A DNA stretch of 61,607 nucleotides, from IMG/VR virus record IMGVR_UViG_3300008448_000080, positions 1 to 61,607 of that record; one strand, written 5' to 3'. This document shows positions 1,498 through 59,108 of the stretch, piece by piece; the first letter of the stretch is position 1; each line of letters starts with the position of its first letter. The stretch is from a virus. Its lineage: Duplodnaviria > Caudoviricetes. The position numbers were made by a program, and so were the translations under genes. The notes under the pieces are model-generated. The model searched no databases and was not told where the DNA came from. It was given only the letters and a program-made list of their open reading frames with translations.

Positions 1498-1775
1498 TTA
1501 ATTTCTCCATTTCTGTTCCGGTCAGTGCGACCGTGTAAAGAAGTATAGTGCCAAAAGTTGTCAGCGGGGAGCCCCCTGTACAACTTTTTTCCATTTTCTT
1601 TCCGCTGTCCGGCTCCGGAAGGTCGTCACCGTCCTGTACTTCCCACACCGCTCACAGCATTCGTGGGACTCCCGGCCCAATCGACTTCGGGCGCTTCGGT
1701 TCCGGGAGGCATAGATCACCAGCAAGCTGTATCCGAACTCCAGCCAGCGGTGTAGGCCCAACCAGCACAAGAGCT

Positions 1776-5925: not shown

Positions 5926-5989
5926 GTGTCAGCTCCTGTCCAAGGTTGAAGATCGGTTTCTGGTCGGTCAAAATGACCTCCTGCGAAGA

Positions 5990-6019
5990 AGTATAGTGCC
6001 ATTCACCCGAAGAAGTAAA
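5990..6019 (-). promoter_or_regulatory. Sigma70-like phage promoter TTTACT-N18-TATACT
   Basis: Near-identical to the copies at 1213 and 22235. Confidence 0.75.
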
Positions 6020-6035
6020 CTGGCAACGAAAATAA

Positions 6036-6248
6036 TTACACGCCCAGGGCCATCCGGATTTCCCGGCGGACCTGAAGGCGGGCGTTGAGGGCGGCGCGAT
6101 GATCGGAGGAGGAGACGGAGCAGGTGACCATACAGGACTTGCCACGCACTACAAAGCGGACCTTGTAGTGGCGGCGTCCCTTCTCCACCGTGTGTACAAT
6201 CCCGGCTTCCTTCAGCTCCTTCACGGTGGCGTCCAAGGTCGTGCTCAC
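6036..6248 (-). CDS. Small basic protein (HicA-like fold possible)
   Basis: GTG start with GAGGAG SD; G.RHYKVRF...S.SD.RA..N pattern. Confidence 0.65.
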   Translation of the reverse strand: MSTTLDATVKELKEAGIVHTVEKGRRHYKVRFVVRGKSCMVTCSVSSSDHRAALNARLQVRREIRMALGV

Positions 6249-9044: not shown

Positions 9045-9421
9045 ATCTCCTCAGTTTTGGGCTTGCGGGTCCATCGGGCCACGCATGCCGCGTAAAGTTT
9101 CTGTTGTTCGACTTGCCCAAGGACACCGGCGGCAACCGCCCCGTCGAACAACAACCATTCATTCTCCCCCACCTTCAGAAGGAGGAAGGCCCGCCCACCG
9201 GCGTGCCTTCGCTTCGTGAGCCAGACTTTTTGCTGTTGAGTGAAGTGGTCCACGCGGAGCGGTCCGCCCATCGGGGGCCACCGCTCCGCGTACTTCAATT
9301 CAATCCAGCCCCCGGTGTAGTTCACATCCGGGGTTCCGGGCACGATGGGGTTCTCAACCCGTACCGGGTCCAGCTTCTTCAGCATCGGTCGGATTGCGTC
9401 CCACATCGCGGCTTCAGACAT
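9023..9421 (-). CDS. PD-(D/E)XK nuclease, Holliday junction resolvase/VRR-NUC-like
   Basis: GTPDV...WIELK...QKVWL motif. Confidence 0.8.
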   Translation of the reverse strand: MSEAAMWDAIRPMLKKLDPVRVENPIVPGTPDVNYTGGWIELKYAERWPPMGGPLRVDHFTQQQKVWLTKRRHAGGRAFLLLKVGENEWLLFDGAVAAGVLGQVEQQKLYAACVARWTRKPKTEEICTWLLN

Positions 9422-9878
9422 CTGCCCAGCTCACTTTCACGTTGTAGCGGCGGGCGATTTCCAACGATTGGTCAATCAACCCATTCCACTGGTCCACCCA
9501 CTTCGGGTCCCGGCCCTCGAATTGGATGGGCGGGAACACGACACGGGTCACTCCGGCCTTCGCGGCAGCTTCCAAGCAGTTCGGGCAGCAGGGAAAAGAA
9601 GTATAGAACGTGAACCTCTGTGCAGTCTCCCCCTCAAGGAACTTCAGCGCGTTGATTTCAGCGTGAACCACGTGTTGGTACTTGTACTCACGATCAGCGT
9701 ACAGCTCCGGGTGATCATCGTGCCCCGGCGGGAAGCCGTTGAACCCGGTGGACGCCACGGAGTTGTTTGGACGGACCAGGACGGCCCCCACCTTCGTGGA
9801 CGGGTCCTTGCTCCAAGTGGCCACTTCCTTCGCCAGCGCGATGTAGCGGCGGTCCCACTTCGCTTGGCGCGTGCTCAC
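9414..9878 (-). CDS. dCMP deaminase
   Basis: SKDPSTKVGA, HAEINAL and PCCPNC zinc motifs. Confidence 0.93.
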   Translation of the reverse strand: MSTRQAKWDRRYIALAKEVATWSKDPSTKVGAVLVRPNNSVASTGFNGFPPGHDDHPELYADREYKYQHVVHAEINALKFLEGETAQRFTFYTSFPCCPNCLEAAAKAGVTRVVFPPIQFEGRDPKWVDQWNGLIDQSLEIARRYNVKVSWADV

Positions 9879-10717
9879 AGCAACTCCTTCTTAAGGGTTT
9901 GTATGCGATCAGGAACCAATTCGGAATACTCCGGATTCAATTCAATTATCAGTGAATCCCTGCCCAAGGCTTCTGCCACTCCTGCGACAGTGCCGGAGCC
10001 CCCAAAGGGGTCCAAGATAATTCCTCCTTTTGGACTACCTGCAAGGATTGCCGGAAGGACTAGCCCGGCGGGGAATGTTGCAAAATGACCTCCCTTGTAG
10101 GGCTTGGCAGCCAATTCCCAAACGCTTCTGCGGTTTCTTCTTGAAACCCCATTGCGAGCAGGCTCCTGAAAGGCATCATAGTCAAAATAGTACCGCTCCG
10201 ACTTGCTGAACATGAAAAGATACTCATGAGCTTTTGTTGCGCGGTCTTTGACACTTTCCGGCATAGGGTTGGGCTTGGACCAGATTATGTCTTGTCTAAG
10301 ATACCAACCATCGTCAGATAGGGCCAGGGCCAGGCGCCAAGGTATGCCCAGCAGTTCCTTCGGCTTCGCTGTTGGGTCAGTGGGCCTCACCCAATCTTTT
10401 TGTAGGGCAGAGGCTCGCAACGTCTGTTGTTTTAAGCCCTGTGTTGCCCCGTGACCTTTTCTTCCAGCAGCGTTGTAGCTGTCTGCTATGTTGAGCCACA
10501 AAGTTCCGGCGGGCTTTAATACCCGGCGGACTTCGCGGAAAACTTCAACCATGCCCGCCACGTACTCCTCACGGTTTGTTTCCAGTCCCATTTGACGGTC
10601 ATTTCCGTAGTCTCTCAACCCAAAGTAGGGGGGAGAGGTAACGACGCAATCCACGTGATTGTCGGGAACGGTTTTCAGAATGTCCCTACAGTCCCCGATC
10701 AGCAGAGAATAGCTCAT
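9875..10717 (-). CDS. Beta-class N4-cytosine DNA methyltransferase (Cfr9I/SmaI-like)
   Basis: TSPPY catalytic motif precedes DPFGGSGT SAM-binding motif; GLRDYG, GIPWRLA, MPESVKDR, HFATFP blocks; more AT-rich than flanks. Confidence 0.9.
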   Translation of the reverse strand: MSYSLLIGDCRDILKTVPDNHVDCVVTSPPYFGLRDYGNDRQMGLETNREEYVAGMVEVFREVRRVLKPAGTLWLNIADSYNAAGRKGHGATQGLKQQTLRASALQKDWVRPTDPTAKPKELLGIPWRLALALSDDGWYLRQDIIWSKPNPMPESVKDRATKAHEYLFMFSKSERYYFDYDAFQEPARNGVSRRNRRSVWELAAKPYKGGHFATFPAGLVLPAILAGSPKGGIILDPFGGSGTVAGVAEALGRDSLIIELNPEYSELVPDRIQTLKKELL

Positions 10718-10911
10718 ATCAAGCCCTTCTCGTTGGCAATCCACTCCGTCACCGTCAGGGTCACCGACTTCGGACCCTTCACCACGTTGCGGACCTGTGA
10801 CTTGGGCATCCAGATTTCGGCCTCACCCCCGTGGTCGATCAGCAGGGCCTTCTCCGTCTCCCGCTTCACCACGCACTCGATTTCTACGGTGTTCTCGTTG
10901 CTAGTTCTCAT
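10714..10911 (-). CDS. Small conserved phage protein
   Basis: ETEKALL...WMPKSQ...EWIA.EKGL pattern. Confidence 0.75.
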   Translation of the reverse strand: MRTSNENTVEIECVVKRETEKALLIDHGGEAEIWMPKSQVRNVVKGPKSVTLTVTEWIANEKGLI

Positions 10912-11456
10912 TTAACGCTCCTTCTAAGTCTTGCTGTTTCAAGTTTTGCCAGCATCCGCTGGCGGTATTCGGGGTCAGCCCACTGTCGCTGTGCGCTTTC
11001 GCGGCGCTTCTCCCGATAGGCGTCTGAGTTGTAACCCGCATTGGGGTCCTTCCTCAGTCGCTTATGGGTTTCACTTTGTTTCTGACGGTACTCCGGTTGA
11101 TTGAATCCTGACCCGGGGTCTGCCCAGACGGACTTCCGGGCGGCGCTCAAGACACCCCGTGTTTCTTCCGAAGGTACAATGCCCTCACCCCCAGCGGTCA
11201 GGTTGTACCCGTGAGGGTCCATGGTCCCTCGTTCCCGGATGTGATGGGCCTCCCGTTCATTCAACATCTCCGTACAACATACCTCAATCACCTCGAAGCG
11301 GAAGGCCCCCACCCCGTGCTTACCCAAGGCGGCGTTCAGCTTTGGGCAACTGGAGCCCAAGCGGTGATCGTTCCACCGCTTCTCAATGTTCCGAGATTGC
11401 CCCACGTAGGCTTTCCCGGAATCACGGTGGGTGATCAGGTAGATGCCGCAGGTCAT
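10908..11456 (-). CDS. Free-standing GIY-YIG homing endonuclease
   Basis: GIYLI...AYVGQS, R and E catalytic positions, GYNLTAGGEG, NUMOD-like tail. Confidence 0.9.
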   Translation of the reverse strand: MTCGIYLITHRDSGKAYVGQSRNIEKRWNDHRLGSSCPKLNAALGKHGVGAFRFEVIEVCCTEMLNEREAHHIRERGTMDPHGYNLTAGGEGIVPSEETRGVLSAARKSVWADPGSGFNQPEYRQKQSETHKRLRKDPNAGYNSDAYREKRRESAQRQWADPEYRQRMLAKLETARLRRSVK

Positions 11457-13429
11457 CCCTCAAACCCCATGGAATGTCCCCAGCTTCTCCCCACCTCCAC
11501 GTCAACTTTTGAAGGAAGTTCGAGGGGCGTGCAGGTACGCATGATGTGGGCGGCTTGTTCGGCTTCCTCCTTCGACTTCACGCTGAATGCGATCTCATCG
11601 TGGACCTGAATGATGATGTCGAACCCGGCGGCATCGCAGGCCACCATTGCCATCTTCGTCTGATCAGCGGAGGAGCCCTGGATCAGGCGGTTCAGGCCCT
11701 TGTGCGTCCAGTCGAAGTTCCCGTCATTGTCCTTCGGGAAGCGGCAGCGGCGTCCGGAGACGGTGACGATGTGGCCCACGGCCTTCGCACGGGCTTCGCA
11801 AGCCTTCGCCAGCTTCTTGATGAAGGGCACCTTGCGGTCGAACGTGTCCAGGAGGGCCTGACCCTCCGGCCCAGCGGCTTCCCACCGGCGGGCTCCCTGC
11901 TCCGCCAACCGGATACCCTCCGGGCTGTTCGCGTCGAAGGTCTGGCCCCGGGGTCCGCGCACCGCCATCATCGTGGGCAGGCCCAGCTTCCGGCACATCT
12001 TCGCCCCGCCCATACCGTAGGACAGGCCCAGGTAAATCTCCTTGGCGTCCTTGCGCTTGATGCCGGCCATATCCGCCATCATCTGGTGGTTGTCAGTCGT
12101 GGGGTCATCCCGGTAGCGGTCCCGGGCTTCAATCGCCTTCTCCCAGGCGTTCTGCCCAATCAGGTCCCGGGCCAGCGCGGCATAGTGCACCGCCATCCGG
12201 GGCTCCTGCTGCGAATAGTCGTTGGACGCCCACATCTCACCCTCCTCCGGGAGGTAGATGGCACGCCACATCGTTGCGAACTCATCGCGGGCGGGCTGCT
12301 GCTGGAGGTTCGGGTGCTCGCAGGACAACCGGCCATAAGCGGCCCCGGCGGTCCCGTCTGCCTCATCGTCCTTTTGACGGCGGAGTTGGTTGAAGGTACA
12401 GTGGAGCCGTCCGTTGATCAGGTGGTCCCGGACGGACTGCCCGAAGGTCGTGCGCAGCTTGTTCACCTTCCGGGCACGTTCCAGGGCATGGGCCACCGGG
12501 TGGTCGATGCCCGCCAGCAGTTCCTTGTCGATGTTGGGCTTGCCCTGGGAGGTCTTTTTGAGCTTGATGCCAATATATTCAAGGGCGGGCGCAATCGTCT
12601 CCGGCTTCCAGACATCGCCCACGTTCACGCGAACTCCGGTGTGGTGATGAACCGCCTTCAGGGCTTCCGTCTCCTGGGCCAGCGCCCACTTCTCAATCAT
12701 GTCCAGTCGGTCCAGGTCAATCCGGACGCCCCGGCGGCGCAGCTTCGTCAGCACCGGGAGCAGGCGGGACTCCAGGTCATAGACGCCCCAAAGGTTCTGC
12801 TCATCAATCTCCCGCTCCTGACGGCGGAGGATGTTCAGCGGCAGGCGGGTGTCCTCCTCCGCGTAGGGCCCAACGAACCGGGCGGGCAGCTTCCACATGT
12901 CCTTCTTCGGGTCAATCTTGTAGTCCAGCGCGGCTTCCTTGAGCAGCTGCTCATTCTTGCCGTCGAAGCCCCAACGGGAGGCAATCGACTGCATGCTGTA
13001 GCTGTCATACAACTCGCAAATCAGCGGGTCCGCAATCTGGATGTCCCGGAAGAAGCGGGCGGACTTGTACTCAATGCCGTCCCCGGCCAGGTAGTCCAAG
13101 TCATACGGGAGGTTGGCCCCCACGATGTCGCCCTTGAACACGGCGGCTTGATCGCGGAGGTAGCGCAGCACTTGATCCACGGGGAGGTTGTCCCCGCCTT
13201 CGTGTCGCATCGGCAGGTAGAACCCCGGCCCGTCCTCAATCGTGAAGCTCACCCCGGTGATGTAGCTGTTCGGGCGGCGTCCCGCTCCGGGTCCGAGTTT
13301 GCGCAGGTCCGGGTCCCGGGTTTCGCAGTCCACGGCGATGCGCTTGGCGTCCGCCCAAGAGGGCAGCGTGTTCAGCTCCGGCGGCTTCCAGTTGCTGTGG
13401 GCGGTCATGAACAGAGGTTGTTGCATCAA
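11453..13429 (-). CDS. polA: DNA polymerase, family A, with 3'-5' exonuclease domain
   Basis: DCET exonuclease motif; GRLS..PNLQQ, DYSQQEPR, R..AK...LGLSYGMG, IQGSSAD, QVHDE. Confidence 0.96.
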   Translation of the reverse strand: MMQQPLFMTAHSNWKPPELNTLPSWADAKRIAVDCETRDPDLRKLGPGAGRRPNSYITGVSFTIEDGPGFYLPMRHEGGDNLPVDQVLRYLRDQAAVFKGDIVGANLPYDLDYLAGDGIEYKSARFFRDIQIADPLICELYDSYSMQSIASRWGFDGKNEQLLKEAALDYKIDPKKDMWKLPARFVGPYAEEDTRLPLNILRRQEREIDEQNLWGVYDLESRLLPVLTKLRRRGVRIDLDRLDMIEKWALAQETEALKAVHHHTGVRVNVGDVWKPETIAPALEYIGIKLKKTSQGKPNIDKELLAGIDHPVAHALERARKVNKLRTTFGQSVRDHLINGRLHCTFNQLRRQKDDEADGTAGAAYGRLSCEHPNLQQQPARDEFATMWRAIYLPEEGEMWASNDYSQQEPRMAVHYAALARDLIGQNAWEKAIEARDRYRDDPTTDNHQMMADMAGIKRKDAKEIYLGLSYGMGGAKMCRKLGLPTMMAVRGPRGQTFDANSPEGIRLAEQGARRWEAAGPEGQALLDTFDRKVPFIKKLAKACEARAKAVGHIVTVSGRRCRFPKDNDGNFDWTHKGLNRLIQGSSADQTKMAMVACDAAGFDIIIQVHDEIAFSVKSKEEAEQAAHIMRTCTPLELPSKVDVEVGRSWGHSMGFEG

Positions 13430-14005: not shown

Positions 14006-14618
14006 CGGCAACTTCCTCGAAGAAGTCGGACAGGCGCTTGTGAGGGGCGTTGCGCAATGCTGCGTAGAGCTGCGCGGCAATCGCGGGCAGGCTACCCTCC
14101 AGCTGGCGCTTCTCCGTCACCTTCTCGCATGCGCGGCGCATCGGCGTGACGGCGGCGTTGCCCAGGGCTTCTTCCTCCCGGCACCACAGCCACAGTTCGA
14201 GGGTGTCCACGGCCTTCAACCACGCTTGTTCGAGTTCCGTGAGTTCCGGGAACAGGCCCAGGCGCTTCAGCAGCTCCGTCTCCGCCCGCTCATAGACTTC
14301 GCCCAGCTCCGTGTTGTCCCACTTCGCGGGGGCGGGTACGTCCCCCAACCAGCGTTCCGCCACGTCATGCCACTGGACGGCCTTGATCAGCTTCAGGGAG
14401 GGCTTCGGGTGAAGCAACAGCAGGAGGCTCACCGCCCCGTAGCTGTGTTGGGCGATGTTGTACTGACCGTGGTGAGGGACGATATGACACCGGCGGACGG
14501 TCCCGGCTTCCCGGGTAGCTGCGAGGCGCGTCAGAAGCGGGCGCTGAACCCGCTCCCGGGCAGCTTCCGCTTCCACTTCCTCGTCACGGATTCTGGATGC
14601 TATGCTGCCCATGATCAC
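13980..14618 (-). CDS. HD-domain nucleotide phosphohydrolase (YfbR-like)
   Basis: VRRCH...NIAQHSY, WHDVAE..LGDVPAPAK, KAVD.LE. Confidence 0.85.
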   Translation of the reverse strand: MIMGSIASRIRDEEVEAEAARERVQRPLLTRLAATREAGTVRRCHIVPHHGQYNIAQHSYGAVSLLLLLHPKPSLKLIKAVQWHDVAERWLGDVPAPAKWDNTELGEVYERAETELLKRLGLFPELTELEQAWLKAVDTLELWLWCREEEALGNAAVTPMRRACEKVTEKRQLEGSLPAIAAQLYAALRNAPHKRLSDFFEEVADGLAQAGA

Positions 14619-15667
14619 GCTCCTGTACCGTAGTCCACGCCATCGTCCTGCGCACGGGCCTTGCGGGCTTCGTGCGCGGCGCGGCGGCGCTCAATCCACT
14701 CGATTGCGGCCAACCTCCAATCGGAAGCGGCCACCCGTCCGAGGGCGTCCATTGCCCCGTCGAAGTCCTTGGCCTTGTAGGCGGCGTGAGCCTGAGACAT
14801 CGGGATGGCCACCTTGCGGAAGAAGGGGTCACGGAAGCCCAAGGCATCCGGCTCCTCCATGAACATCTTCAGCTCCGCGTCCCACTCCTCCCGGGGCAAC
14901 GACATCAGCGGGAAGGGCTCCACCGCTTCGGCAGCATACGGGTCCGGGGTGGGCGCTCCGGTCAGGGGGTCCGGGGCGTAGTCTGCCAACGGGGAAACCT
15001 TCGCCAGCACGTCCTTGTAGGCGTGAAAGTTCGCGGACACTTGACGGTACACGCCCTGCGGGACGCCCACGGAGCGGGCCACGTACTCGTGGAGGTAGCT
15101 GAAGTGCACGGCGTTGGCACCGTAGGCTCCCCACACCAGATCGTTCGAGCGGTTGGTGACCATCATGTCCAGGCGTCCGTCCGATGAGACTTGAAACACG
15201 GCCTGAAGGTTGCACGGGAGGTCCTTGCCAGAGCGGCCCAAGTCAGCATCCGCGTCCCACATCGACAGGACCTGGCGGCGGTCATCCGGGTTCGCCTTCA
15301 GGGCGTTGATGATCTTGGGCAATTGGTCATCGAAGAAGAAGTTGCGCCAGCGGAAGCCGTAAGCCCCGTGGAACACCTTGCCATCGTCCGAGTAGGTGCG
15401 CATGCGCTCCACGTAGCGGGCCACGAACTCCACATCACGGCGTCCCGCCAGCATCCAGAGGCTTTCCACCAGGTGGAAGAACGGGTTGCAATCCCGCTCC
15501 GCCCAGAACATCACCCGCTCCGCAGGGCGGAGGTACACCGTGGTCACCGGCTCCGGGAACATGCGCACGGGACCGTTGCGGCTTTCACGCTCCACGCCTT
15601 CGTTGTTGAGCTGATACAAGGCTTCGGGAAGGGCCTGTTGTACGTTGCGTGCTTTGATGACTTTCAT
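14615..15667 (-). CDS. Thymidylate synthase homologue, probable dUMP hydroxymethylase
   Basis: GAYGFRWR, RRQVLSMWD, DLPCN, NRSNDLVWGAYGANAVHFS, NFHAY; lies within a T-hypermodification cluster. Confidence 0.9.
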   Translation of the reverse strand: MKVIKARNVQQALPEALYQLNNEGVERESRNGPVRMFPEPVTTVYLRPAERVMFWAERDCNPFFHLVESLWMLAGRRDVEFVARYVERMRTYSDDGKVFHGAYGFRWRNFFFDDQLPKIINALKANPDDRRQVLSMWDADADLGRSGKDLPCNLQAVFQVSSDGRLDMMVTNRSNDLVWGAYGANAVHFSYLHEYVARSVGVPQGVYRQVSANFHAYKDVLAKVSPLADYAPDPLTGAPTPDPYAAEAVEPFPLMSLPREEWDAELKMFMEEPDALGFRDPFFRKVAIPMSQAHAAYKAKDFDGAMDALGRVAASDWRLAAIEWIERRRAAHEARKARAQDDGVDYGTGA

Positions 15668-16224
15668 TTCGCTTCCTTGAAGGACAAGCCCAGGCGGGCG
15701 TTCAGGTCTTTGATCGGCAGGGCGGGCAAGTACCGGCCTGTGTCGGTTTGTTGAAACTGCTTCACGAAGGGTTCGACCTCCGGCCAGACTTCGATCAGCT
15801 TCTTGACCGTGGTCACGCTGCCCAGGATGGCTTGGGCGGAGGACTTCGCACCGGACTTCTCCAGGCTCAGGGCGTCCTTTGCCTTGCGGAAGGCGGCGTG
15901 ACGAACGGACAACGGGTGCTTGTCGTCATAGACCCGGGCGGCGTTGGCTTGGTGGGCGCAGGACAGCATCCGGTTCTCACCGAAGTACACGCGGGTGAAG
16001 TCTCCCCCGAAGGACACGCACACGTCATCGTCCACGGGAAGGAAGCCGGAGGGCAGGGCCTTCATTTTCTTCTGAACGTCCTCCGGGTACAGGTCCTGGT
16101 ACACGGCGTCACCCAGGGCGAACCATTCCTTGTCCAGTGCCTTTTCGCGTTCATCGAAGGCGTGCGAGAGGAGGCTGCTGATCACAGTCTCCTTGATGTA
16201 GTTGCTCAAGCGTACAGTTGCCAT
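15664..16224 (-). CDS. Nmad5 (nucleotide modification associated domain 5) protein
   Basis: C-terminal VTTVKKLIEVWPE...LPA...LNARLGL; position beside the TS homologue. Confidence 0.75.
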   Translation of the reverse strand: MATVRLSNYIKETVISSLLSHAFDEREKALDKEWFALGDAVYQDLYPEDVQKKMKALPSGFLPVDDDVCVSFGGDFTRVYFGENRMLSCAHQANAARVYDDKHPLSVRHAAFRKAKDALSLEKSGAKSSAQAILGSVTTVKKLIEVWPEVEPFVKQFQQTDTGRYLPALPIKDLNARLGLSFKEAK

Positions 16225-16237
16225 TTCAATTCTCCCG

Positions 16238-17194
16238 TTAAATCTTGGTTGCCTTGCGCCAGTCATACTTGCTGCGCATCTTGCCTTCGCCCAGCTTCAC
16301 CCGTTCGTACTTGTCGAACTCGCAAAGGCAGTGCTCAATGTCGCGCATCTCGAAGCGGGGGAACGTATCCTCACCACCATCCAGACGCGGCCCGAAGGTC
16401 TGCGTGAATCCCGGCTCCGCCCAGTCGTTCAGATCGTTCATCAAGTCGAACATCTCCCGGTTGGTCACTTCCGGCTTCGGCTTCGCTCCGAGGTCCCGCC
16501 CGTGGAGGCGGTTCAGCCCCCGAATAGCTCCCGGACCGGCGTTGGCCCATGAGTAAATGTCCGGGGCTTCGTTCAGGTAGCGGGTGTGGCGGAGGTCCGT
16601 GACCACTTCATAGGCCATGAACGGTCCCCAACCGATGTAGCGGGGCTCCTGAAACACCTTCCAGACCTGCTCCAGGGAGGCTTGGCGCTTGCCTTCAAGG
16701 ACTTCCACGAAGGCGGCACGGTCCTCCCACAGACGCCCAATCACGATTTCCGCGATGTAGCGGTGCTTGCTCCAGCTGTACCACTCCTTGGACTGATCGG
16801 ACTCCGCCCTGATCATGTACGCTCCGGTGTACACCTTGTCCCCGAAGGATGCCTTGGCTGCGAGGACTTCCGAGACGTTCGAGGGCGTGAAGTCCTCGTG
16901 GCTGGGCCAGGCCCCGGGCGCTTCGATCAACGTGGCCAGGGTATCGGGCCAATTGATATAGCGGGCCAACGCCAGCATGAGCCAAAGGTGTTCGTGTCCG
17001 GCGTAAGGCTTGCGGATGTTCTCCTCAATCCAGATCGTCACGGTGTCCAGTTCGCGGAACACGTTGCAGAAGCGGCCCCCGGCCAGGATGGGGTCAGCCG
17101 TCCAGGGTCCGGGTTGACCGGCCTTGCGCTTCAGGTAGATGTCGTGCCGCTCCTTGATGAAGGCGGCGAACTCGTCAATGCGAGGAGTTGTCAT
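16238..17194 (-). CDS. 5-hmdU DNA kinase helical domain protein (aGPT-Pplase1 family)
   Basis: ERH.IY..R..G...PWT.DPIL...RFCNVFRELD; GPFMAYEVVTDL; GPGA.RGL; IEHCLCEFDKY. Confidence 0.88.
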   Translation of the reverse strand: MTTPRIDEFAAFIKERHDIYLKRKAGQPGPWTADPILAGGRFCNVFRELDTVTIWIEENIRKPYAGHEHLWLMLALARYINWPDTLATLIEAPGAWPSHEDFTPSNVSEVLAAKASFGDKVYTGAYMIRAESDQSKEWYSWSKHRYIAEIVIGRLWEDRAAFVEVLEGKRQASLEQVWKVFQEPRYIGWGPFMAYEVVTDLRHTRYLNEAPDIYSWANAGPGAIRGLNRLHGRDLGAKPKPEVTNREMFDLMNDLNDWAEPGFTQTFGPRLDGGEDTFPRFEMRDIEHCLCEFDKYERVKLGEGKMRSKYDWRKATKI

Positions 17195-17207
17195 GATGGT
17201 CAATTCC

Positions 17208-17762
17208 TCAGATGATTGCGAGAAGGGCGGCGCGGGCGTCCTGCCACGGAAGGTCCAGCACGGTTTCCTTGTCGGCCAGGGCCTTGTCGCGGACCCGGGC
17301 GATGGTGCGGTGCTTGTCAGCCACCTGGTCCTCCTTGATGGGCTTGCCTCCGTTGCGCACCTGGATGCGTTCAAGGCAGGTCTGGAGCGGAGTGTCCAGG
17401 AATGCCCAAGTCATCCCTCCGTTGGCTTTCGACCACTCCTGCCACGGTCCGTAGATGGTACTGACCACCACGCCCTCGAACAGGACGGCCTTCACCTCCG
17501 GGTCCTTGCCCACGAACTCAACCACGGCCTTCGCGGCGGCTTGGGTCTTGATGCGGTCCAGGCCAGCGGTGGTAGAACCGGCGGCGGCGGGCGTGTAGTC
17601 CCCGATGATGGCGATGCCGCCGGGGCAGTAGGTGACCGGGATGGGCTTGTGGAGTTCGCCCATGTTCACGTTCGAGACGCGGCACAGGGGGTCGGTTGCG
17701 AGGCTTCGCAACAGGGTAGTCTTGCCGGAGCCGTTACAGCCCCGCACGTTGATGTATTTCAT
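17208..17762 (-). CDS. P-loop kinase, probable 5-hmdU DNA kinase
   Basis: INVRGCNGSGKTT Walker A; G.Y.......GLD; LFEG; LDTP...CL.RI..RN. Confidence 0.85.
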   Translation of the reverse strand: MKYINVRGCNGSGKTTLLRSLATDPLCRVSNVNMGELHKPIPVTYCPGGIAIIGDYTPAAAGSTTAGLDRIKTQAAAKAVVEFVGKDPEVKAVLFEGVVVSTIYGPWQEWSKANGGMTWAFLDTPLQTCLERIQVRNGGKPIKEDQVADKHRTIARVRDKALADKETVLDLPWQDARAALLAII

Positions 17763-17819
17763 CTTGGTTCTCCGTTTCTGAGTTGAATGTGGGCGGAGCC
17801 GGAGCCCCGCCCGGGGGAC

Positions 17820-19286
17820 TTACTGCTGGACCACCACCTTGATGGCTTCCAGCTTCTTCTTGATGCGGTCAGGCTGATCAGCGTCAGGCCCAGCCACGTA
17901 CTTGAAGTCAGGGGCGCGAAGGGCGCGGGCGGCTCCGAACACTTCCGAGCCGCAACGGCCCTTCAGCTTGTCTTCCGGTTTCGCATCGTCCGGTGCGCAA
18001 TACAAACAGCCCGAAGGGGCGCAGGCTTTCACCTCCTCGAAGTTCTCTGACAGGTCCTTCCGCGTGAACATCGGAACCTTCTGGCCGTGGCACTGATCGG
18101 CGGTCGTGAACTGACGGCCCACGCTTTGCCAACCACCTCCGCCTTCGCCCTTCGCGTACTCATAGCACGTGGCGTAAGTCATGCCCAGTTCGGTGGCCCA
18201 CTTCTGGTACATCGCATGAGCCTCCAAGCGGTAGGCTTGGGCAATCGTGCGCTGCGCACCGGCCTGGTTCTCCGTGAACAGGGCTTGGAACTTCCCGGCC
18301 CGCTCCGCTCCGAACCGCTTGTGAAGGCGCTCCACCATCGCGGGAGCCCAGCTGTAACCGGCCTCCACGAACTTGACGATGACGTGGTTGTTGCCGACTT
18401 CCGCCAGACGCTCAAACAACCGGCGGATGTCCTCGTGGGAGGTAATCCCGGGCACCACCGGATTCACCTGAATCGAAGTGTAGATGCCTTGGTTGCGCAG
18501 CTCACGGATTTCGTCCAGGTGCGCCTGAAGGGAGATAGCCCCGGGCGACAACTTGTGCCAGTCCGCATCGTTGCCCGTGTTCAAGGACTTCTGGGCATAG
18601 CTGAAGGGGTTTTGCTTCAGAAGGTCGAAGGCCCAATCAGGGTAGTGGAGGCGGGACAGGAAGAACACCGGCAGGCCCAAGCGCACGAACTCCTCCGCAC
18701 CGCGTTGGGTGTTGTGGTACACCTCCTCAATCGGCAGGAACGGGTCCGTGAAGCTGGAGAAGTAACCGGCGGCGGAGGTGTGGACCTTGGACAGCTGGTT
18801 GCGGACCTGCTCCCCGTAGTTCATCGGCACGCTGATCAGGCCAGAGCCCCGATAACCCCGGAACCCGCTGTTGACATAGCAGAAGGCGCAACCCACGGTG
18901 CAATACCCGCCATAAGGCTCCGTCAGGATAGCTTCCGAGAAGCAAGGACGCGGACGGCTCCCCTGCTTGTCGTTGTGCTTGTCCTGGTACCAACCTTGCA
19001 GCGGCTTCGCGTTCGGAATGCGCAGGTGCGGCACGTAGGTCTTGTCATTGAATCCGAGGTACACCTTGACCTCCTTCTTGGACTCATCGGGGGCGTTGCG
19101 GACCATGCCAACCTTCGCCATGCGGAACTTCGCACGCATGCCGGTCAGCGGGTCATCCTCCTCCTCGATTGGGCCCAGGAACTCACGCTGGTTCGGGTCC
19201 GGGCGCATGAAATACTTGTAAGCCTCCTGGGCTTCTTCGCCTGTGTTCTCCTCCAGCCATTTGCTGTGGTCGTGTTCGCTTTGCAT
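17820..19286 (-). CDS. Radical SAM enzyme (M6-type DNA modification isomerase)
   Basis: CTVGCAFC CxxxCxxC motif; additional C-terminal Cys cluster; cluster context. Confidence 0.88.
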   Translation of the reverse strand: MQSEHDHSKWLEENTGEEAQEAYKYFMRPDPNQREFLGPIEEEDDPLTGMRAKFRMAKVGMVRNAPDESKKEVKVYLGFNDKTYVPHLRIPNAKPLQGWYQDKHNDKQGSRPRPCFSEAILTEPYGGYCTVGCAFCYVNSGFRGYRGSGLISVPMNYGEQVRNQLSKVHTSAAGYFSSFTDPFLPIEEVYHNTQRGAEEFVRLGLPVFFLSRLHYPDWAFDLLKQNPFSYAQKSLNTGNDADWHKLSPGAISLQAHLDEIRELRNQGIYTSIQVNPVVPGITSHEDIRRLFERLAEVGNNHVIVKFVEAGYSWAPAMVERLHKRFGAERAGKFQALFTENQAGAQRTIAQAYRLEAHAMYQKWATELGMTYATCYEYAKGEGGGGWQSVGRQFTTADQCHGQKVPMFTRKDLSENFEEVKACAPSGCLYCAPDDAKPEDKLKGRCGSEVFGAARALRAPDFKYVAGPDADQPDRIKKKLEAIKVVVQQ

Positions 19287-19314
19287 CGTCTGATTCTCCG
19301 GTAGTGTGTGAAAA

Positions 19315-19343
19315 AGTATAGGGGGTGAGGGGGAAGAAGTAAA
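19315..19343 (-). promoter_or_regulatory. Phage promoter TTTACT-N17-TATACT upstream of the radical SAM gene
   Basis: Same motif family as the other copies. Confidence 0.7.
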
Positions 19344-19352
19344 GTGAACCAA

Positions 19353-19511
19353 TCATTTATCGTTTGGCTCCTCCCGCTTCTTCCGCCAGCGTTCTTTGGC
19401 GGCTTCGGACATCTTCCGCCGGTGCTCCTCCGTGAACACGCGGCCCTTCATGCGTTCGGAGTGCTCCCGGCGCTGGGCTTCGTCCCGGGGGCGTCCCTTC
19501 GGATAGCCCAT
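19353..19511 (-). CDS. Stand-alone NUMOD3-repeat peptide (homing endonuclease remnant)
   Basis: MGYPKGRPRDEAQRREHSERMKGRVFTEEHRRKMSEAAK, 52 aa, no nuclease domain. Confidence 0.65.
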   Translation of the reverse strand: MGYPKGRPRDEAQRREHSERMKGRVFTEEHRRKMSEAAKERWRKKREEPNDK

Positions 19512-19515
19512 GGCG

Positions 19516-20355
19516 TCAGTCCCCAATGTTCCAGAACACGATGGGCTTGTGAGCCAACGGCTCCAAGTTCTCCGGCTGTTGAAGCCAGTTCCACGCCTTC
19601 TGGTCATAGTAGGGGTTGCACGGGAACGGAACGGACACGCTGCTGGGCGCGGCGTCAGCGTAGTTGTAGCCCTCATCCACGAAGCGGACCCGCTCCGTCA
19701 GCTGAATCCCGGCGGCACGTTCGATGTATGCGCGGGTGGAGTCCTGACTGCGGGAGTACCCCATGTTGAGAATGACGTCATACCCGTCCAGGATACCGGC
19801 CTGCTTGAAGCCCAGGAGGACCCCGGCGGCAACCGTCCCGGAGCTGATGGACAGAATCAGGGTGCCTTCGCCCGGGAGGTCCGGGGCGGTGCGCAGGGCT
19901 TCTGCGGCGTTCTCCGTGATCGACTCCGGCAGCTTCAGGGCGTTGGGCATCAGGTAGCCGTTCTGGTAGCCCTCCATCAGGCGCTTGCGCGCTCCGTGGT
20001 ACAGGACTGCGGAGCGGCCCGCCGGAAGGTCCACCAGGTCCGCTCCGAGCTGGCGGGCACGCTGCTGCTGAATGCGCGGGGCGTCCGCGTTCCCGTCCTT
20101 CTTGTAGCGGGGCCAGAAGTCCACGCACTTGCGTCCGAGGTGGTTGCAAACGTAGGCCACCGCGTGTCCGGCCTTCGAGTGGTACGTGTCCAGGACCCCG
20201 ATGACCTGCTCAGGGCGGTTCTTGATATGGGCCACCACCCCGCGTATCTTGCTGAAGGACGGACCGGGCAGCGGGGCGCAAAGGTCCTCACGCTTGACGA
20301 TGACGGAGACGCCCCGGAGGTCGTGGACTTCGAGCGGTGTGTTGTTGACGATCAT
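19516..20355 (-). CDS. PLP-dependent enzyme (fold type II), probable DNA-linked amino acid decarboxylase
   Basis: TPLE...VKREDL......FSKIRG (PLP lysine); [10 protein letters not shown]; YDQKAW; FWNIG. Confidence 0.87.
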
Positions 20356-21230
20356 GATTGCTCCTTGGGCATGTGGTGGAGGAAGGCGCGGGCGGCGGGG
20401 CACGAAGCGGCCCAGGGTTCGAGTCCGGTGTTGATCTCCCGGATGTCGTTCCAGATCGGGTAGTGACCATTCATGTGCGACTTCCACTTGCACAGAACCG
20501 TCTCCACCTCCTGGATGTTGATTGGGCGGTCGGACAGGGGCGGGGCTTCGAGGTCCCGGAAGTGCCCAATCAGGTACTCCGCCACCCCGTTCAGGATGAC
20601 CTCCCGCTTGGGCTTCGCGTTCTCCGGGTACTTGTGGCCCTGACGGAGCTGCCACAGCACCATCGCGGCCTTCTCCGGGTCCTTGAACATGAACACGGCG
20701 GCGTTGTCGAAGTCCACCGGGACCTCCATCACGCGGTCCATCATGTCCGCAATCTTGAACCCAATCCATGGTCCGAAGCCGTTGTGCTCCTGAGCACGCT
20801 GCGAGACGGTCCGGAAGGGCAGGCGCTCATCCTCCGTTGCCCTTGCGCCCACGTACAGGGCGAAGTTCTCCGGGCGGTCCCCGTACCGCTTCTGGAGGGA
20901 CGATACAGAGTTGACCGCAATTGCTGCGCGGAAGTGGCGGCGCTCATGTCCCCGTGGCCATCGTCCGCCCACGGGGGTTTCGTTCGCGTTCTCCGCTGCG
21001 ATCATCATCCAGTGCCAGAACTCCTCCCCCTCCTTCTCGCTGAGGAAGGACGCAACGGCGGCGCTGTAGTAACACCAATATGCGACCATCCAGCGGCAGA
21101 GCTGGGGGATGGAGAAGTCACCGGCCTTCTCCGCCTTCACCAAGGCGATGTAAATGGGGTCCAGGTCCCCGGAGGTGATCAGTTGTCGCCCAAAGGACTC
21201 GATGTCCAGGCGTGGGTAGTTTCTGCTCAT
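20352..21230 (-). CDS. Amino acid:DNA transferase (aGPT-Pplase2 family)
   Basis: [43 protein letters not shown]. Confidence 0.88.
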
Positions 21231-22177: not shown

Positions 22178-22234
22178 GATGAGCTCCATTTCTGAGGGTT
22201 GAGTTCCGGTCCGTTTCGTTCGACCGTGAGAAGA

Positions 22235-22264
22235 AGTATAGTGCCATTCTTGCGAAAAAGTAAA
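22235..22264 (-). promoter_or_regulatory. Phage promoter TTTACT-N18-TATACT flanked by a 13-bp inverted repeat (22218-22230 / 22288-22300)
   Basis: Directly visible in sequence. Confidence 0.75.
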
Positions 22265-22324
22265 GTGGACGGCAAAATAATTTCTGGCTCACGGTCGAAC
22301 CAGGCCCCGGAGGGCCTTCAGGCG

Positions 22325-29499: not shown

Positions 29500-29828
29500 G
29501 TGCGCTTGACTTAGTGGGTTTCTACTTGACTTCGGGACCCGAAGAAGTATAGAACCCAAGTACATGTCTAAGCCCCACATTTATATGGGTTTTCTTATCT
29601 TTTATTATTATTATTACTTAACTTACTTAACTTACTTACCTTCATTCCCCGGGAGCCGTTCTGGGCTGTCCCGCCGGTTCTATCGGGCGAACTGAAAAAG
29701 AAGTGGAGTAAGTCAAGTAAGTCAAGCGCACCGTGCCGAAGTTCCACCCCCGTATGGGTTTAATGTGCGCTTGGGTTCTATACTTCTTCGGGCACGAAGT
29801 CAAGTAGGGCGGCGCGAAGTCAAGCGCA
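29500..29828. repeat. Non-coding element copy A (inverted arms, 9-bp iterons, AT-rich core)
   Basis: 48-bp core 29590-29637 identical to 58871-58918; 26-bp block 29645-29670 identical to 58926-58951. Confidence 0.9.
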
Positions 29829-43714: not shown

Positions 43715-44251
43715 TCACACCTCCTGCTGGCGGTCGCGCATCAGCTTCTTTTCACGGAGCTTCTGCTTGGTTTCTTCTGAGTGCGTCCAACCCGTTCGGG
43801 CCTTCAACTTCTCCCGGGTCGCTTCGCTCATGGCGGGTCTTGCCTTTGCCGCCTGAGACAACTTCAATCGGTGTTCTTCCGTGAAGCGTTGACCCTTCTT
43901 GGCGTCAGAGACTTTCTGGCGGTACTCCTCCGTGCGGTCCCAGGCACTCATCTTCGTCCGGGCAGCTTCCGAAGGCTCCGTGCCCCCGATACCGCCCCCG
44001 TTGAGGTTATACCCAGCCGGGTCCTTGGTGTCGAAGGCTTCGATGATTTTCTGTTCCATGAAGAAACAGAAGGAGCGGGAGGCTTGGAGCAGAAGGGTCA
44101 GGGCGGGTGTACCGTACTTGCGGATGGCCTTGCCCACGGGGAGGTCCCCCCGGGCGTGCTGCTGAAGTCGAACGGAAGGTTGCGAGGACACCCCCACGTA
44201 CTTCTTCCCGTTCGGGAACTCCAAGCAGTAAACAAAAGCCGCATCAGCCAT
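43715..44251 (-). CDS. GIY-YIG/NUMOD3 homing endonuclease
   Basis: FVYCL...KYVGVS, GYNL..GG.G, NUMOD3 repeats (FTEEHRLKLS, HSEETKQKL). Confidence 0.88.
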   Translation of the reverse strand: MADAAFVYCLEFPNGKKYVGVSSQPSVRLQQHARGDLPVGKAIRKYGTPALTLLLQASRSFCFFMEQKIIEAFDTKDPAGYNLNGGGIGGTEPSEAARTKMSAWDRTEEYRQKVSDAKKGQRFTEEHRLKLSQAAKARPAMSEATREKLKARTGWTHSEETKQKLREKKLMRDRQQEV

Positions 44252-53121: not shown

Positions 53122-54333
53122 TCAGAACTTTTCAGGGTCAAGGCCCGCCTTCCGGAAGGCTTCCGGCTTCGTTGCTGCCAGCTGTTCCAGGGTCAGCTCC
53201 GTCCCGTTCCGGTCCACGAACTGGTCCACGTTCAACCCGCCCTTGCGGAACAAGGCCCCCTTGGTCTTGCCCAGGACCTCATCCTGGAAGGAGGCGGACT
53301 GACGGCCCAAGAAGTCCTGATATGTTGTGGCGGCGGGAACCCGGCCCACGTTCCGCTCCGCCCACTCCTTGCGAACGTCCTGGATGGACTTCCCTTGGGC
53401 CTTCGCTTCTGCGCGGAAGTCGATTTCACGCTTGTCCCGGGTCCGGGTATCCGTCACGGTGGGGCGGTTGCCCAGAAGCCCGACCCCGTCGATGTACGCC
53501 ACCATCACCGAGCGGCAGTTGATATGGGCGGGGGGCTTCGCGTTCGCGGGCGTGAGCGGCGGGACTCCTTCGGGCAGCGGGTTGTCGCCCACGGGGGCTC
53601 CGTGACCGTCCCGGGCGCGGCAAACAGCAGAGGTCCGCCCGTCCAGCGTGGAGGTCCAGATGCGGGCCTGTATCACGTCACTGTTCGCGTCCCAGACGTA
53701 GTTGCGAGCCGTGTTGGACACGTGGTTCACGGCGGTCCGGACGATGGCCTGGGCGTCCCGGCGGGTCATCGACAGGATGCCGTCCGCGTAGTTGTTCTTG
53801 CGAGTGCCCACGACACGGCGCACGATGTCGTCAATGGGCTCCCCCTGCGTCATCCCCAGCTGAAGGGCTTGTACAAGTCGTTGCTGATCGACCTGCTCCA
53901 GGGTCTGGAACCACTCCTTGAGCAAGCGGCCCTGGAACGGTTGCGAGGAGACGATGGCGCGGAGCTGATCAGCGGCCACGGCGGCGAAGCTGATTTCAAT
54001 CGGCAGGGAGGACTCCAGCACGGAGACTTCCCGGGCTCCTTCCATCGTGGACAGCGTGCCGAGCTCGGTGCGGACCGTCTCCCGGTACTCCGCCAGCGCC
54101 ACTGCGCGGGCGTCCTTCACGTCCGCCAGCAGGGCCTTCCAGCGGTCCCCGGTGAAGTCCATGGGCTTGCCCTCGAACTTGGCCAGGCGGGCCTTCAACT
54201 TCTCCGTCAGGTCCGCGTCCGCCTTCTCCAGGAGCTTGGCGATGCGCTTGTTCAACCCGGCGGAGTACCGGCGCAGGCCAATTTGGTGGCGCAGCGCGGC
54301 GTCCCTGTATTGTTCGTTACTGGTCATTGGCAT
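53122..54333 (-). CDS. Head morphogenesis protein (SPP1 gp7/MuF-like)
   Basis: RTAVNH, STLDGRTSAVCRARDG, PPAHINCRS. Confidence 0.9.
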   Translation of the reverse strand: MPMTSNEQYRDAALRHQIGLRRYSAGLNKRIAKLLEKADADLTEKLKARLAKFEGKPMDFTGDRWKALLADVKDARAVALAEYRETVRTELGTLSTMEGAREVSVLESSLPIEISFAAVAADQLRAIVSSQPFQGRLLKEWFQTLEQVDQQRLVQALQLGMTQGEPIDDIVRRVVGTRKNNYADGILSMTRRDAQAIVRTAVNHVSNTARNYVWDANSDVIQARIWTSTLDGRTSAVCRARDGHGAPVGDNPLPEGVPPLTPANAKPPAHINCRSVMVAYIDGVGLLGNRPTVTDTRTRDKREIDFRAEAKAQGKSIQDVRKEWAERNVGRVPAATTYQDFLGRQSASFQDEVLGKTKGALFRKGGLNVDQFVDRNGTELTLEQLAATKPEAFRKAGLDPEKF

Positions 54334-54913
54334 GATTCATCCTTTTCTTGATGGCGTCCCAACCCAATCCAGTTTCCCGCATAGCCCCGTGAATGGAAGG
54401 ATACAAAACCCCATCAATCACTACGGGCTTGGCGTTCACGGGCAGCTTCCCCAGCTTTGCCTGCGCCATCTTCGCACGTGCCTCCGTGGTTATGACCCGG
54501 CCCTTGCACTTCTCCGAGAATCGCTGGCGGGCTTCTGGTTTCCACTTGGTGCCCAGGACCTTCTGACGCTGGCGCTCCCGGGACTCCGGAGGCATCCGAT
54601 ACCCGGGTGTGCCTTCGCCCCCGTCCGTCAAGTTGTAGCCGTGTGGCTTCTGGGTTCCAAATGCCTTGATGGCTTTGCGTTCGAGGTCGCAGAGGTAGTC
54701 CCAGTCATCGGCAATGACCAGGACCTCCAACTGCGCCTGTCCCGGGTACTTGTTCAAGGCGTGGTGGAGCAGGGAACCTCCCCGGGGCTTTTCCCGCTTC
54801 AGGCGGGCGGCTTCTGCGCAGTGGTCCTTGAACCGACTTTTGGCCTGCTGCGTTGTGATGCCCAGGTAGGCTTTGCCGTTTGGGAAGGATACCCGGTACA
54901 AGCAACCCATCAC
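54317..54913 (-). CDS. GIY-YIG/NUMOD homing endonuclease
   Basis: CLYRV...AYLGIT, GYNLTDGGEG, NUMOD repeats, C-terminal V.IDGVLYPSI. Confidence 0.88.
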   Translation of the reverse strand: MMGCLYRVSFPNGKAYLGITTQQAKSRFKDHCAEAARLKREKPRGGSLLHHALNKYPGQAQLEVLVIADDWDYLCDLERKAIKAFGTQKPHGYNLTDGGEGTPGYRMPPESRERQRQKVLGTKWKPEARQRFSEKCKGRVITTEARAKMAQAKLGKLPVNAKPVVIDGVLYPSIHGAMRETGLGWDAIKKRMNHANDQ

Positions 54914-58769: not shown

Positions 58770-59108
58770 TGTGCGCTTGGGTTGCGCTTCAGTTTCCACC
58801 GTTCTACTTGACTTCCCACACGAAGAAGTATAGAACCCAAGTACAGCCCTAAGTCCCAGTAAATAAAGGCTTTTCTTATCTTTTATTATTATTATTACTT
58901 AACTTACTTAACTTACTTGGGATAGTTCCCCGGGAGCCGTTCTGGGCTGTCGGTCCGCGTTTGTCGGGCGAATTGAAAAATAACCCAAGTAACCCAAGTA
59001 AGTCAAGCGCAGATTGCGTAACCTCCAGCCCCGCTTGAGTTTCCTGGCAACTCCACACTATACTTTATCCCAAGTAATTGCGAGGTGAAGTCAAGTAACC
59101 CAAGCGCA
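58770..59108. repeat. Non-coding element copy B
   Basis: Direct, imperfect repeat of 29500-29828 with identical 48-bp and 26-bp blocks. Confidence 0.9.

Follow-up and report, generated by a model that had tools for sequence, protein, structure and literature searches.

Genes at the methylase locus

The window, by which we mean the whole stretch of DNA analyzed here, is a complete 61,607-bp virus record, and essentially all of its genes lie on the minus strand. The phage is M6/YuA-like: its replication module was approximately 81% identical at the nucleotide level to Pseudomonas phage M6, YuA, and some 50 further Yuavirus records. The closest relative found was a complete IMG/VR genome of 60,886 bp, termed G404, with 85% identity over 81% of the window. 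The features around the methylase gene are listed in Table 1.

Table 1. Features at and near the methylase gene in the window
Feature	Position	Strand	Description
dCMP deaminase	9414..9878	-	Core gene immediately downstream of the methylase; PF00383, E 1.3e-17; 79% nucleotide identity to NEU2024
Orphan beta-class SPPY DNA methyltransferase	9875..10717	-	280 aa; PF01555; predicted m4C, probably CCCGGG
Conserved 65-aa ORF	10714..10911	-	Upstream of the methylase; weak S1-like match; stop overlaps the methylase ATG
GIY-YIG homing-type endonuclease	10908..11456	-	PF01541, E 1.9e-11; between PolA and the 65-aa ORF
Family A DNA polymerase (PolA)	11453..13429	-	Upstream core operon gene; PF00476, E 5e-45; 83% amino acid identity to L062 PolA
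Thymidine hypermodification cluster	14615..20769	-	PF00303, PF18757, PF18723 (E 1.3e-54), PF04055, PF00291

The frame of the methylase is open over 9875..10744 (-), the longer version being GTG-started. We took the ATG at 10717 as the true start because it forms an ATGA overlap with the stop of the 65-aa ORF and because the homologues likewise begin with MSY. At the other end, the methylase stop overlaps the GTG start of the dCMP deaminase (GTGA), giving 4-bp overlaps at both ends of the gene. The protein matched PF01555 (N6_N4_Mtase) with 171.4 bits (cut-off 26.7; E 3.7e-50), and residues 22–267 covered positions 1–218 of the 221-position profile. Motif IV, TSPPY (residues 27–31), lies N-terminal to motif I, DPFGGSGT (residues 236–243), and both were invariant in an alignment of 11 family members in which 82 columns were invariant. 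The motif order is that of the beta class.

The composition of the methylase gene is foreign to that of the surrounding genes. In 400-nt windows, the GC content over 9800–10999 was 0.52–0.55 against 0.59–0.67 in the flanks, and the GC3 of the methylase was 0.54 compared with 0.78 for the dCMP deaminase, 0.83 for the 65-aa ORF, and 0.84 for PolA. No RE_* Pfam family was found in the 67 window ORFs scanned, and the immediate neighbors are the dCMP deaminase and the 65-aa ORF. As no cognate nuclease gene is adjacent, we concluded that the gene is an orphan methylase and not part of a restriction-modification system. The earlier note had described a beta-class SPPY methylase, AT-richer than its neighbors, in the replication operon and without a restriction partner; the PF01555 match, the GC3 values, and the ORF scan all bore out this description.

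The scan also returned three homing-type ORFs of the GIY-YIG family and, within an SNF2 helicase, one ResIII match below threshold. Judged by its family, the GIY-YIG endonuclease upstream of the 65-aa ORF is not a restriction partner. Its ORF was missing at the same place in G404 and NEU2024, and homologues with 37–39% identity occupied the slot in two other loci (L233 and L234). The idea that this ORF might encode an unrecognized Eco29kI-like nuclease for CCGCGG, and so account for the zero count of that site, was rejected, since it gave no RE_Eco29kI match and G404 has zero CCGCGG sites without it. The 65-aa ORF was present in 17 of 20 YuA-like loci and was 74% identical to the ORF at the same position in L062, a Yuavirus fragment with 95.8% nucleotide identity to phage Aergia. 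It matched the C-terminal part of a 104-aa ORF of NEU2024 and showed no similarity to the 64-aa ORF of that phage.

The hypermodification cluster contains genes for a thymidylate-synthase-like hydroxymethylase, Nmad5, a 5-hmdU DNA kinase, a radical SAM protein, and a PLP enzyme, and it was approximately 81% identical, in nucleotides, to M6 and other genomes of Yuavirus. The premise that thymidine is hypermodified in this phage is sound by homology, given that an M6-type cluster was found in the window. The window thus resembles M6 and other Yuavirus phages in its genome plan, in its hypermodification genes (5-NedU thymidine hypermodification in M6/Yuavirus), and in the pattern of purged palindromes. 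It differs from M6, YuA, S218, and NEU2024 in having a PF01555 gene, which these four lack.

Relatives of the methylase

The methylase family was reached via the XcyI nuclease and not via M.Cfr9I or M.SmaI themselves. Two of the 401 Pseudomonadota genomes in an evenly drawn sample encoded RE_XcyI (PF09571), and both carried a 294-aa methylase immediately upstream of the nuclease with 53% and 50% full-length identity to the window enzyme. When the window protein was searched against the same 401 genomes, six gave E ≤ 1e-40; the XcyI-linked pair scored best (3.3e-88 and 2.4e-84) and provided the sole full-length matches. A plasmid search returned 114 matching records, the top ones 51–53% identical to the window enzyme. 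All three top matches inspected had an annotated XcyI-family nuclease directly downstream of the methylase: pRA2 of P. alcaligenes, which carries the Pac25I system and whose M.Pac25I was 53.1% identical to the window methylase, pAG1 of Xanthomonas citri, and one Agrobacterium plasmid. Five methylases adjoining XcyI-family (CCCGGG) nucleases, including M.Pac25I, showed 50–55% full-length identity to the window enzyme.

The earlier note had assigned the enzyme to a Cfr9I/SmaI-like group on the basis of the blocks TSPPY.GLRDYG, GIPWRLA, DGWYLR.DI.W.KPN.MPESVKDR, and HFATFP. These blocks were present, and they were common to the methylases adjoining XcyI-family nucleases. The family assignment is therefore right in substance and is supported by these sequence relatives. 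M.Pac25I and the XcyI-paired methylases resemble the window enzyme in their length class (286–300 aa), in the short loops of the C-terminal half, and in the TSPPY and FxGxG motifs. In contrast to the window enzyme, which is without a nuclease, they are halves of restriction-modification systems with the nuclease gene immediately downstream.

Among 402 matching GenBank phage records, the best match was p05 (AH14a_p05) of the Pseudomonas prophage phiAH14a, with 58.1% identity over 92% of the query and 56% in the 11-row alignment. Two uncharacterized phage homologues were as close (Smarc2, 61%; PHB04, 58%). Pattern-based searches of loci with the window protein turned up nothing but distant relatives. 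In the published work on phiAH14a (PLoS One 2016, PMC4936722), p05 expressed in E. coli protected a plasmid from SmaI and not from HpaII, BsuRI, Bsh1236I, or Hin6I, and phiAH14a virion DNA was SmaI-resistant and HpaII/MspI-sensitive. The same authors cite M.Pac25I as an m4C enzyme whose CCCGGG specificity had been defined by experiment. Like the window enzyme, p05 is a phage-encoded orphan SPPY beta-class methylase without a nuclease partner. It differs in its length of 354 aa, with an insertion of approximately 70 residues, absent from the window enzyme, between motif VIII and RNRRSVW, in lying next to the integrase of a temperate phage whose thymine is unmodified, and in belonging to a separate clade of the tree.

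CCCGGG sites and the exposure left by thymidine hypermodification

In a digest study of M6, the nearest phage so studied (Flodman et al. 2019, PMC6449724), M6 DNA was cut completely by SmaI, XmaI, TspMI, SrfI, SacII, BssHII, AvaI, and AlwI, and sites containing TG or TC were resistant. The complete cutting by SmaI, XmaI, and TspMI agrees with the statement of the earlier note that modification of T cannot protect T-free sites.

CCCGGG occurs 92 times in the window, against 51.7 expected from base composition and 96.9 from a Markov model (observed/expected 0.95), and is thus neither avoided nor enriched beyond its sub-words. It is abundant, as had been claimed; the sites include those at 1860, 2530, 3160, and 4148, as well as 29648 and 58929 within two 175-nt repeats. 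The other seven GC-only hexamer palindromes were present in 0–12 copies with observed/expected ratios of 0–0.39 (CCGCGG 0, CGCGCG 0, CGGCCG 0, GGCGCC 1, GCCGGC 4, GCGCGC 5, and GGGCCC 12), and CCCGGG is the sole GC-only hexamer palindrome that has not been purged in the window. Palindromes containing TG/CA were kept (TGATCA 58, TGCGCA 40, CAGCTG 32, and TGGCCA 29). Many others were absent, for example TTCGAA with 0 copies against 37 expected, as well as GTCGAC, CTCGAG, AAGCTT, and others. The palindrome usage of the window mirrors the M6 digest pattern.

Seven relatives that were at least 92% complete had 78–94 CCCGGG sites, and six of them gave no PF01555 match: NEU2024 (94 sites), YuA (93), S218 (91), Bordetella phage CN1 (89), M6 (88), and G404 (86). 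The more distant G407, also without a PF01555 match, had 43 sites against a Markov expectation of 46. Because CCCGGG is equally common in relatives without the gene, its persistence is independent of the methylase and goes far back in the clade as a whole. The equal counts, which include those of G404, rule out the abundance of CCCGGG as a consequence of the methylase, and the number of sites is accordingly no independent evidence that CCCGGG is the target.

The site profile of G404 was the same as that of the window (CCCGGG 86, CCGCGG 0, CGCGCG 1, and TCCGGA 46). M6-type relatives keep approximately 120 CCGCGG sites and have purged TCCGGA, whereas in the window and G404 it is CCGCGG and CGCGCG that have been purged, and TCCGGA is tolerated. 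The purge of CCGCGG and CGCGCG thus belongs to the lineage of the window and G404. Of the palindromic hexamers, TCCGGA alone was tolerated in the window yet avoided by the M6-type relatives (36 sites versus 0–1); it was rejected as a candidate target, since the methylase-free G404 has 46 sites, and the tolerance is accordingly no methylase effect that would speak for a target other than CCCGGG.

A CYCGRG (AvaI-type) specificity was likewise rejected: the methylase that lies beside a BsoBI/AvaI-family nuclease has 453 aa and the alpha motif order, and is of a different kind. Furthermore, CCCGAG/CTCGGG was purged in the window (2 versus 21 expected), which counts against a CYCGRG methylase because such an enzyme would make the purge unnecessary. 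As indirect evidence for protection of CCCGGG, this purge gives a hint at most; a similar depletion was seen in Bordetella phage CN1 without a methylase, and L062 has a methylase and no purge.

These results bear on the division of labor proposed in the earlier note, in which modified T shields A/T-containing sites, m4C shields CCCGGG-like sites, and the remainder is purged by mutation. The proposal held in part: thymidine modification leaves CCCGGG exposed and the other GC-only palindromes have been purged; the abundance of CCCGGG, however, is not tied to the methylase, as G404 and the other methylase-free relatives show. A weaker reading is coherent with the data, namely that CCCGGG is the largest standing gap and that the phage acquired an enzyme of a gap-closing family.

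Acquisition, probable target, and possible role of the methylase

In G404, the 65-aa ORF abuts the dCMP deaminase with the same GTGA overlap, and the window methylase sits exactly between the two. The last codons of the methylase (…KKELL-stop) resemble the end of the displaced ORF (…EKGLL-stop in G404). At this position, L062 carries a methylase that is 67% identical and just as poor in GC3, and it has a Mom-family gene (PF25680, E 6e-26) in the neighboring slot, where the window has the GIY-YIG gene. There are records of the L062-type allele on 18 contigs, the longest of 62.6 kb. In 20 YuA-like loci retrieved via the deaminase, the interval from the 65-aa ORF to the deaminase held the methylase once, in L062, and an unrelated 64-aa ORF eight times, with neither in the rest, and the flanking slot holds a GIY-YIG gene, a Mom gene, or neither. 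Elsewhere than in this slot, one related genome (G405) has two SPPY PF01555 enzymes between an HTH gene and the primase, and another (G406) has two PF01555 domains in one 532-aa frame. Extra methylases are a recurrent but sporadic accessory of the clade, and the methylase of the window is an accessory patch for a weak spot of long standing, not the reason why the sites persist.

As to chemistry, several database labels of homologues would make the enzyme an N6-adenine methyltransferase of the CcrM or Dam-like type. The best PDB sequence match was CcrM (E 3.2e-20), as was the best NCBIfam model, and cyanophage homologues are annotated as 'dam'. A serine in motif IV (SPPY/SPPF) marks m4C enzymes, and adenine enzymes carry Asp or Asn at this position. 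The SPPY of the window enzyme is shared with the N4-cytosine methylase 8S9M, which has TSPPY and scored nearly the same as CcrM (E 1.7e-18); TSPPY was present in 11 of 11 aligned members, whereas the CcrM chain has DPPY. In addition, the score against the NCBIfam CcrM model was 98.9 bits versus a cut-off of 830, and p05 of phiAH14a blocks SmaI at a site without adenine (PMC4936722). An adenine methylase is thus very improbable. An orphan SPPY m4C anti-restriction methylase directed at a site other than CCCGGG, related or unrelated, deserves more weight, although we regard it as unlikely. An identity of 50–58% among type II methylases is no guarantee of the same specificity, and the loop after DSY (residues ~82–117), which differs in length and sequence from that of the XcyI-linked enzymes, is specific to the clade of the window enzyme. 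The tree leaves room for such a target. Its 93 rows were the window enzyme, P0002–P0060 of 120 listed matches, 22 loci, and 11 enzymes that were named or linked; IQ-TREE was run as a quick search, and SH-aLRT was the sole measure of support. The window enzyme grouped with five metagenomic proteins of 66–71% identity in a 6-row clade with 100% support, nested in a 46-row clade of metagenomic proteins without a labeled or characterized member, and not among the proven CCCGGG enzymes. The window enzyme fell outside the clade of the XcyI-paired methylases, which was tight and had a long stem (length 1.5; 100% SH-aLRT); this latter clade and that of phiAH14a, phiPSA1, and LESphi3 joined the window clade only at a 76-row polytomy. 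The CCCGGG label requires two changes on this tree, and the starred branches allow one. Against a different target stand the labeled relatives found, all of which are CCCGGG-specific (one experimental phage enzyme and five XcyI-adjacent methylases), and the window core (residues 121–272), which aligned gap-free to M.Pac25I, including the segment from motif VIII to motif X. No homologue beside another nuclease was found, as the 17 flanking ORFs of six homologue loci gave no RE family. Moreover, the CCCGGG specificity occurs on two branches of the polytomy and survives the 70-residue insertion of p05, and the conserved core therefore seems to carry it; both points favor a shared target. On this sequence evidence, CCCGGG is the probable target of the methylase.

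The methylase might also bring no restriction benefit at all and ride along, neutral or regulatory, as a passenger in a hotspot of recombination, perhaps brought in with mobile genes such as that of the GIY-YIG endonuclease. The variability of the methylase slot (one methylase and eight 64-aa ORFs in 20 loci) and of the slot flanking it would fit such a passenger, and G404 does without the methylase despite its 86 CCCGGG sites. In the phiAH14a study (PMC4936722), the host of that phage had no CCCGGG restriction system, and the authors doubted an anti-restriction role there. The window gene, however, has kept its reading frame and all catalytic motifs intact, together with the translational coupling at both ends. 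The copy kept in the L062 slot is 67% identical in a setting where PolA is 83% and the deaminase 75% identical, which suggests long-term retention under purifying selection, and the SPPY methylases of G405 and G406 were acquired independently elsewhere. We therefore consider a mere passenger improbable, more so than a methylase with another target.

Our preferred explanation is that of an active stand-alone m4C methylase that targets CCCGGG, closes a gap against restriction, and is an accessory gene; taken as a whole, we hold it to be somewhat better than an even bet. We infer the activity, the m4C chemistry, the CCCGGG specificity, and the anti-restriction benefit for the window phage. The stand-alone N4-cytosine (SPPY) methylase would be co-transcribed and translationally coupled with replication genes, and new phage DNA would thereby be methylated during replication. 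The main disguise of this DNA would be the M6-type, 5-hmdU-derived hypermodification of thymidine at TG/TC, under which T-free sites would stay unprotected. Methylation of CCCGGG may close this gap against type II systems that cut CCCGGG, such as those of the XcyI/Pac25I family, which reside on plasmids of Pseudomonas, Xanthomonas, and enterobacteria. The gene would have entered by horizontal transfer, its site being a variable hotspot with the 65-aa ORF on one side and the dCMP deaminase on the other, and would not be a fixed strategy of the clade.

A broader proposal, which we put forward tentatively and hold to be rather less likely than the explanation above, is that the junction from PolA to the dCMP deaminase in M6/YuA-like phages is a swap-in hotspot for DNA-modification genes that patch the gaps of TG/TC-limited hypermodification. 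The lineage of the window would have purged seven GC-only palindromes and methylated CCCGGG, and its ongoing purges, those of GGATC and CCCGAG/CTCGGG, would follow the nucleases that its host currently has.

Orphan phage methylases of the CCCGGG type are a known kind of enzyme, found here in a setting for which we found no printed report: the literature searched contained no report of methyltransferases in Yuavirus-type phages, and the word 'methyltransferase' has 0 occurrences in a family-wide comparison (PMC11946847). M6-type thymidine-hypermodified phages find use, and are studied, as restriction-resistant phages of Pseudomonas, and published digests reveal clear gaps in this resistance at T-free sites. 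A natural relative with a probable CCCGGG methylase and a full purge of CCGCGG shows routes by which such gaps are closed. The window phage and its methylase-free sister G404, which have the same site profile, form a matched pair for a clean test, and the analysis flags a variable locus of these phages where extra modification genes, such as those for the methylase and Mom, collect.

Palindrome usage and apparent lineage-specific site loss

Over the whole window, the retained and purged palindromes agreed with the published in vitro behaviour of the DNA of Pseudomonas phage M6, in which thymidine hypermodification acts at TG/TC. Digestion-resistant TG/TC sites were retained, while the purged sites were either cut in M6 DNA or had no occurrence in M6. 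GATC persisted chiefly as TGATCA (58 of the 217 GATC). The site counts for the whole window were compared with those for L021–L037 and L253–L265. CCGCGG was absent from both the window and its sister genome G404, in contrast to 116–128 copies in M6-type relatives, and CGCGCG was present in 0 and 1 copies, respectively, versus 25–63. TCCGGA showed the opposite trend (36 in the window and 46 in G404 versus 0–1 in M6-type relatives). GGATC (19 versus 52) and CCCGAG/CTCGGG (2 versus 21) were further reduced in the window relative to G404. These differences look like lineage-specific purges following different host nucleases.

Repeats and homing-type endonuclease genes

Each of the two direct repeats in the window contained one CCCGGG site. 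In addition, blocks of genes were preceded by a recurrent GAAGAAGTATAGTGCCA-like motif, a possible promoter or regulatory element of the phage. Three GIY-YIG homing-type ORFs were identified in the window, and some relatives had homologues in the same or nearby slots.

Features of the window and of related loci
Feature	Location	Strand	Remarks
GIY-YIG homing-type endonuclease ORF	window 10908–11456	−	breaks PolA/65-aa-ORF junction
GIY-YIG homing-type endonuclease ORF	window 43715–44251	−	after tape-measure gene
GIY-YIG homing-type endonuclease ORF	window 54317–54913	−	between portal-region genes
175-nt direct repeats (n = 2)	window 29587–29761, 58868–59042		81% identical
Further positions given with the repeats and GAAGAAGTATAGTGCCA-like motif	window 1511–1553, 5982–6049, 22204–22294
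Two adjoining SPPY methylases (G405)	L224:4667–6354	+	PF01555; 261 and 301 aa
Single open frame (G406)	G406:C1:9168–10658		532 aa; two PF01555 domains
Methylase then dCMP deaminase (Pseudomonas phage LESphi3)	L060:1495–3023
Mom-family gene (L062)	L062:6507–7082	+	PF25680, E = 6e-26; GC3 0.54

Modification genes in other phages

Other PF01555 genes were present in the YuA-like relatives G405 and G406; the G405 pair was located between an HTH gene and the primase. The methylase of LESphi3 was 54% identical to that of the window, and the dCMP deaminase gene came next with a 4-bp overlap. LESphi3 is an unrelated temperate phage and shares this gene pair and its order with the window. In the IMG/VR Yuavirus fragment L062, the Mom-family gene was flanked by PolA and the 65-aa ORF and adjoined the 67%-identical methylase. 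In this M6-like phage, thymidine hypermodification may therefore be accompanied both by cytosine methylation and by a Mom-type modification of adenine.
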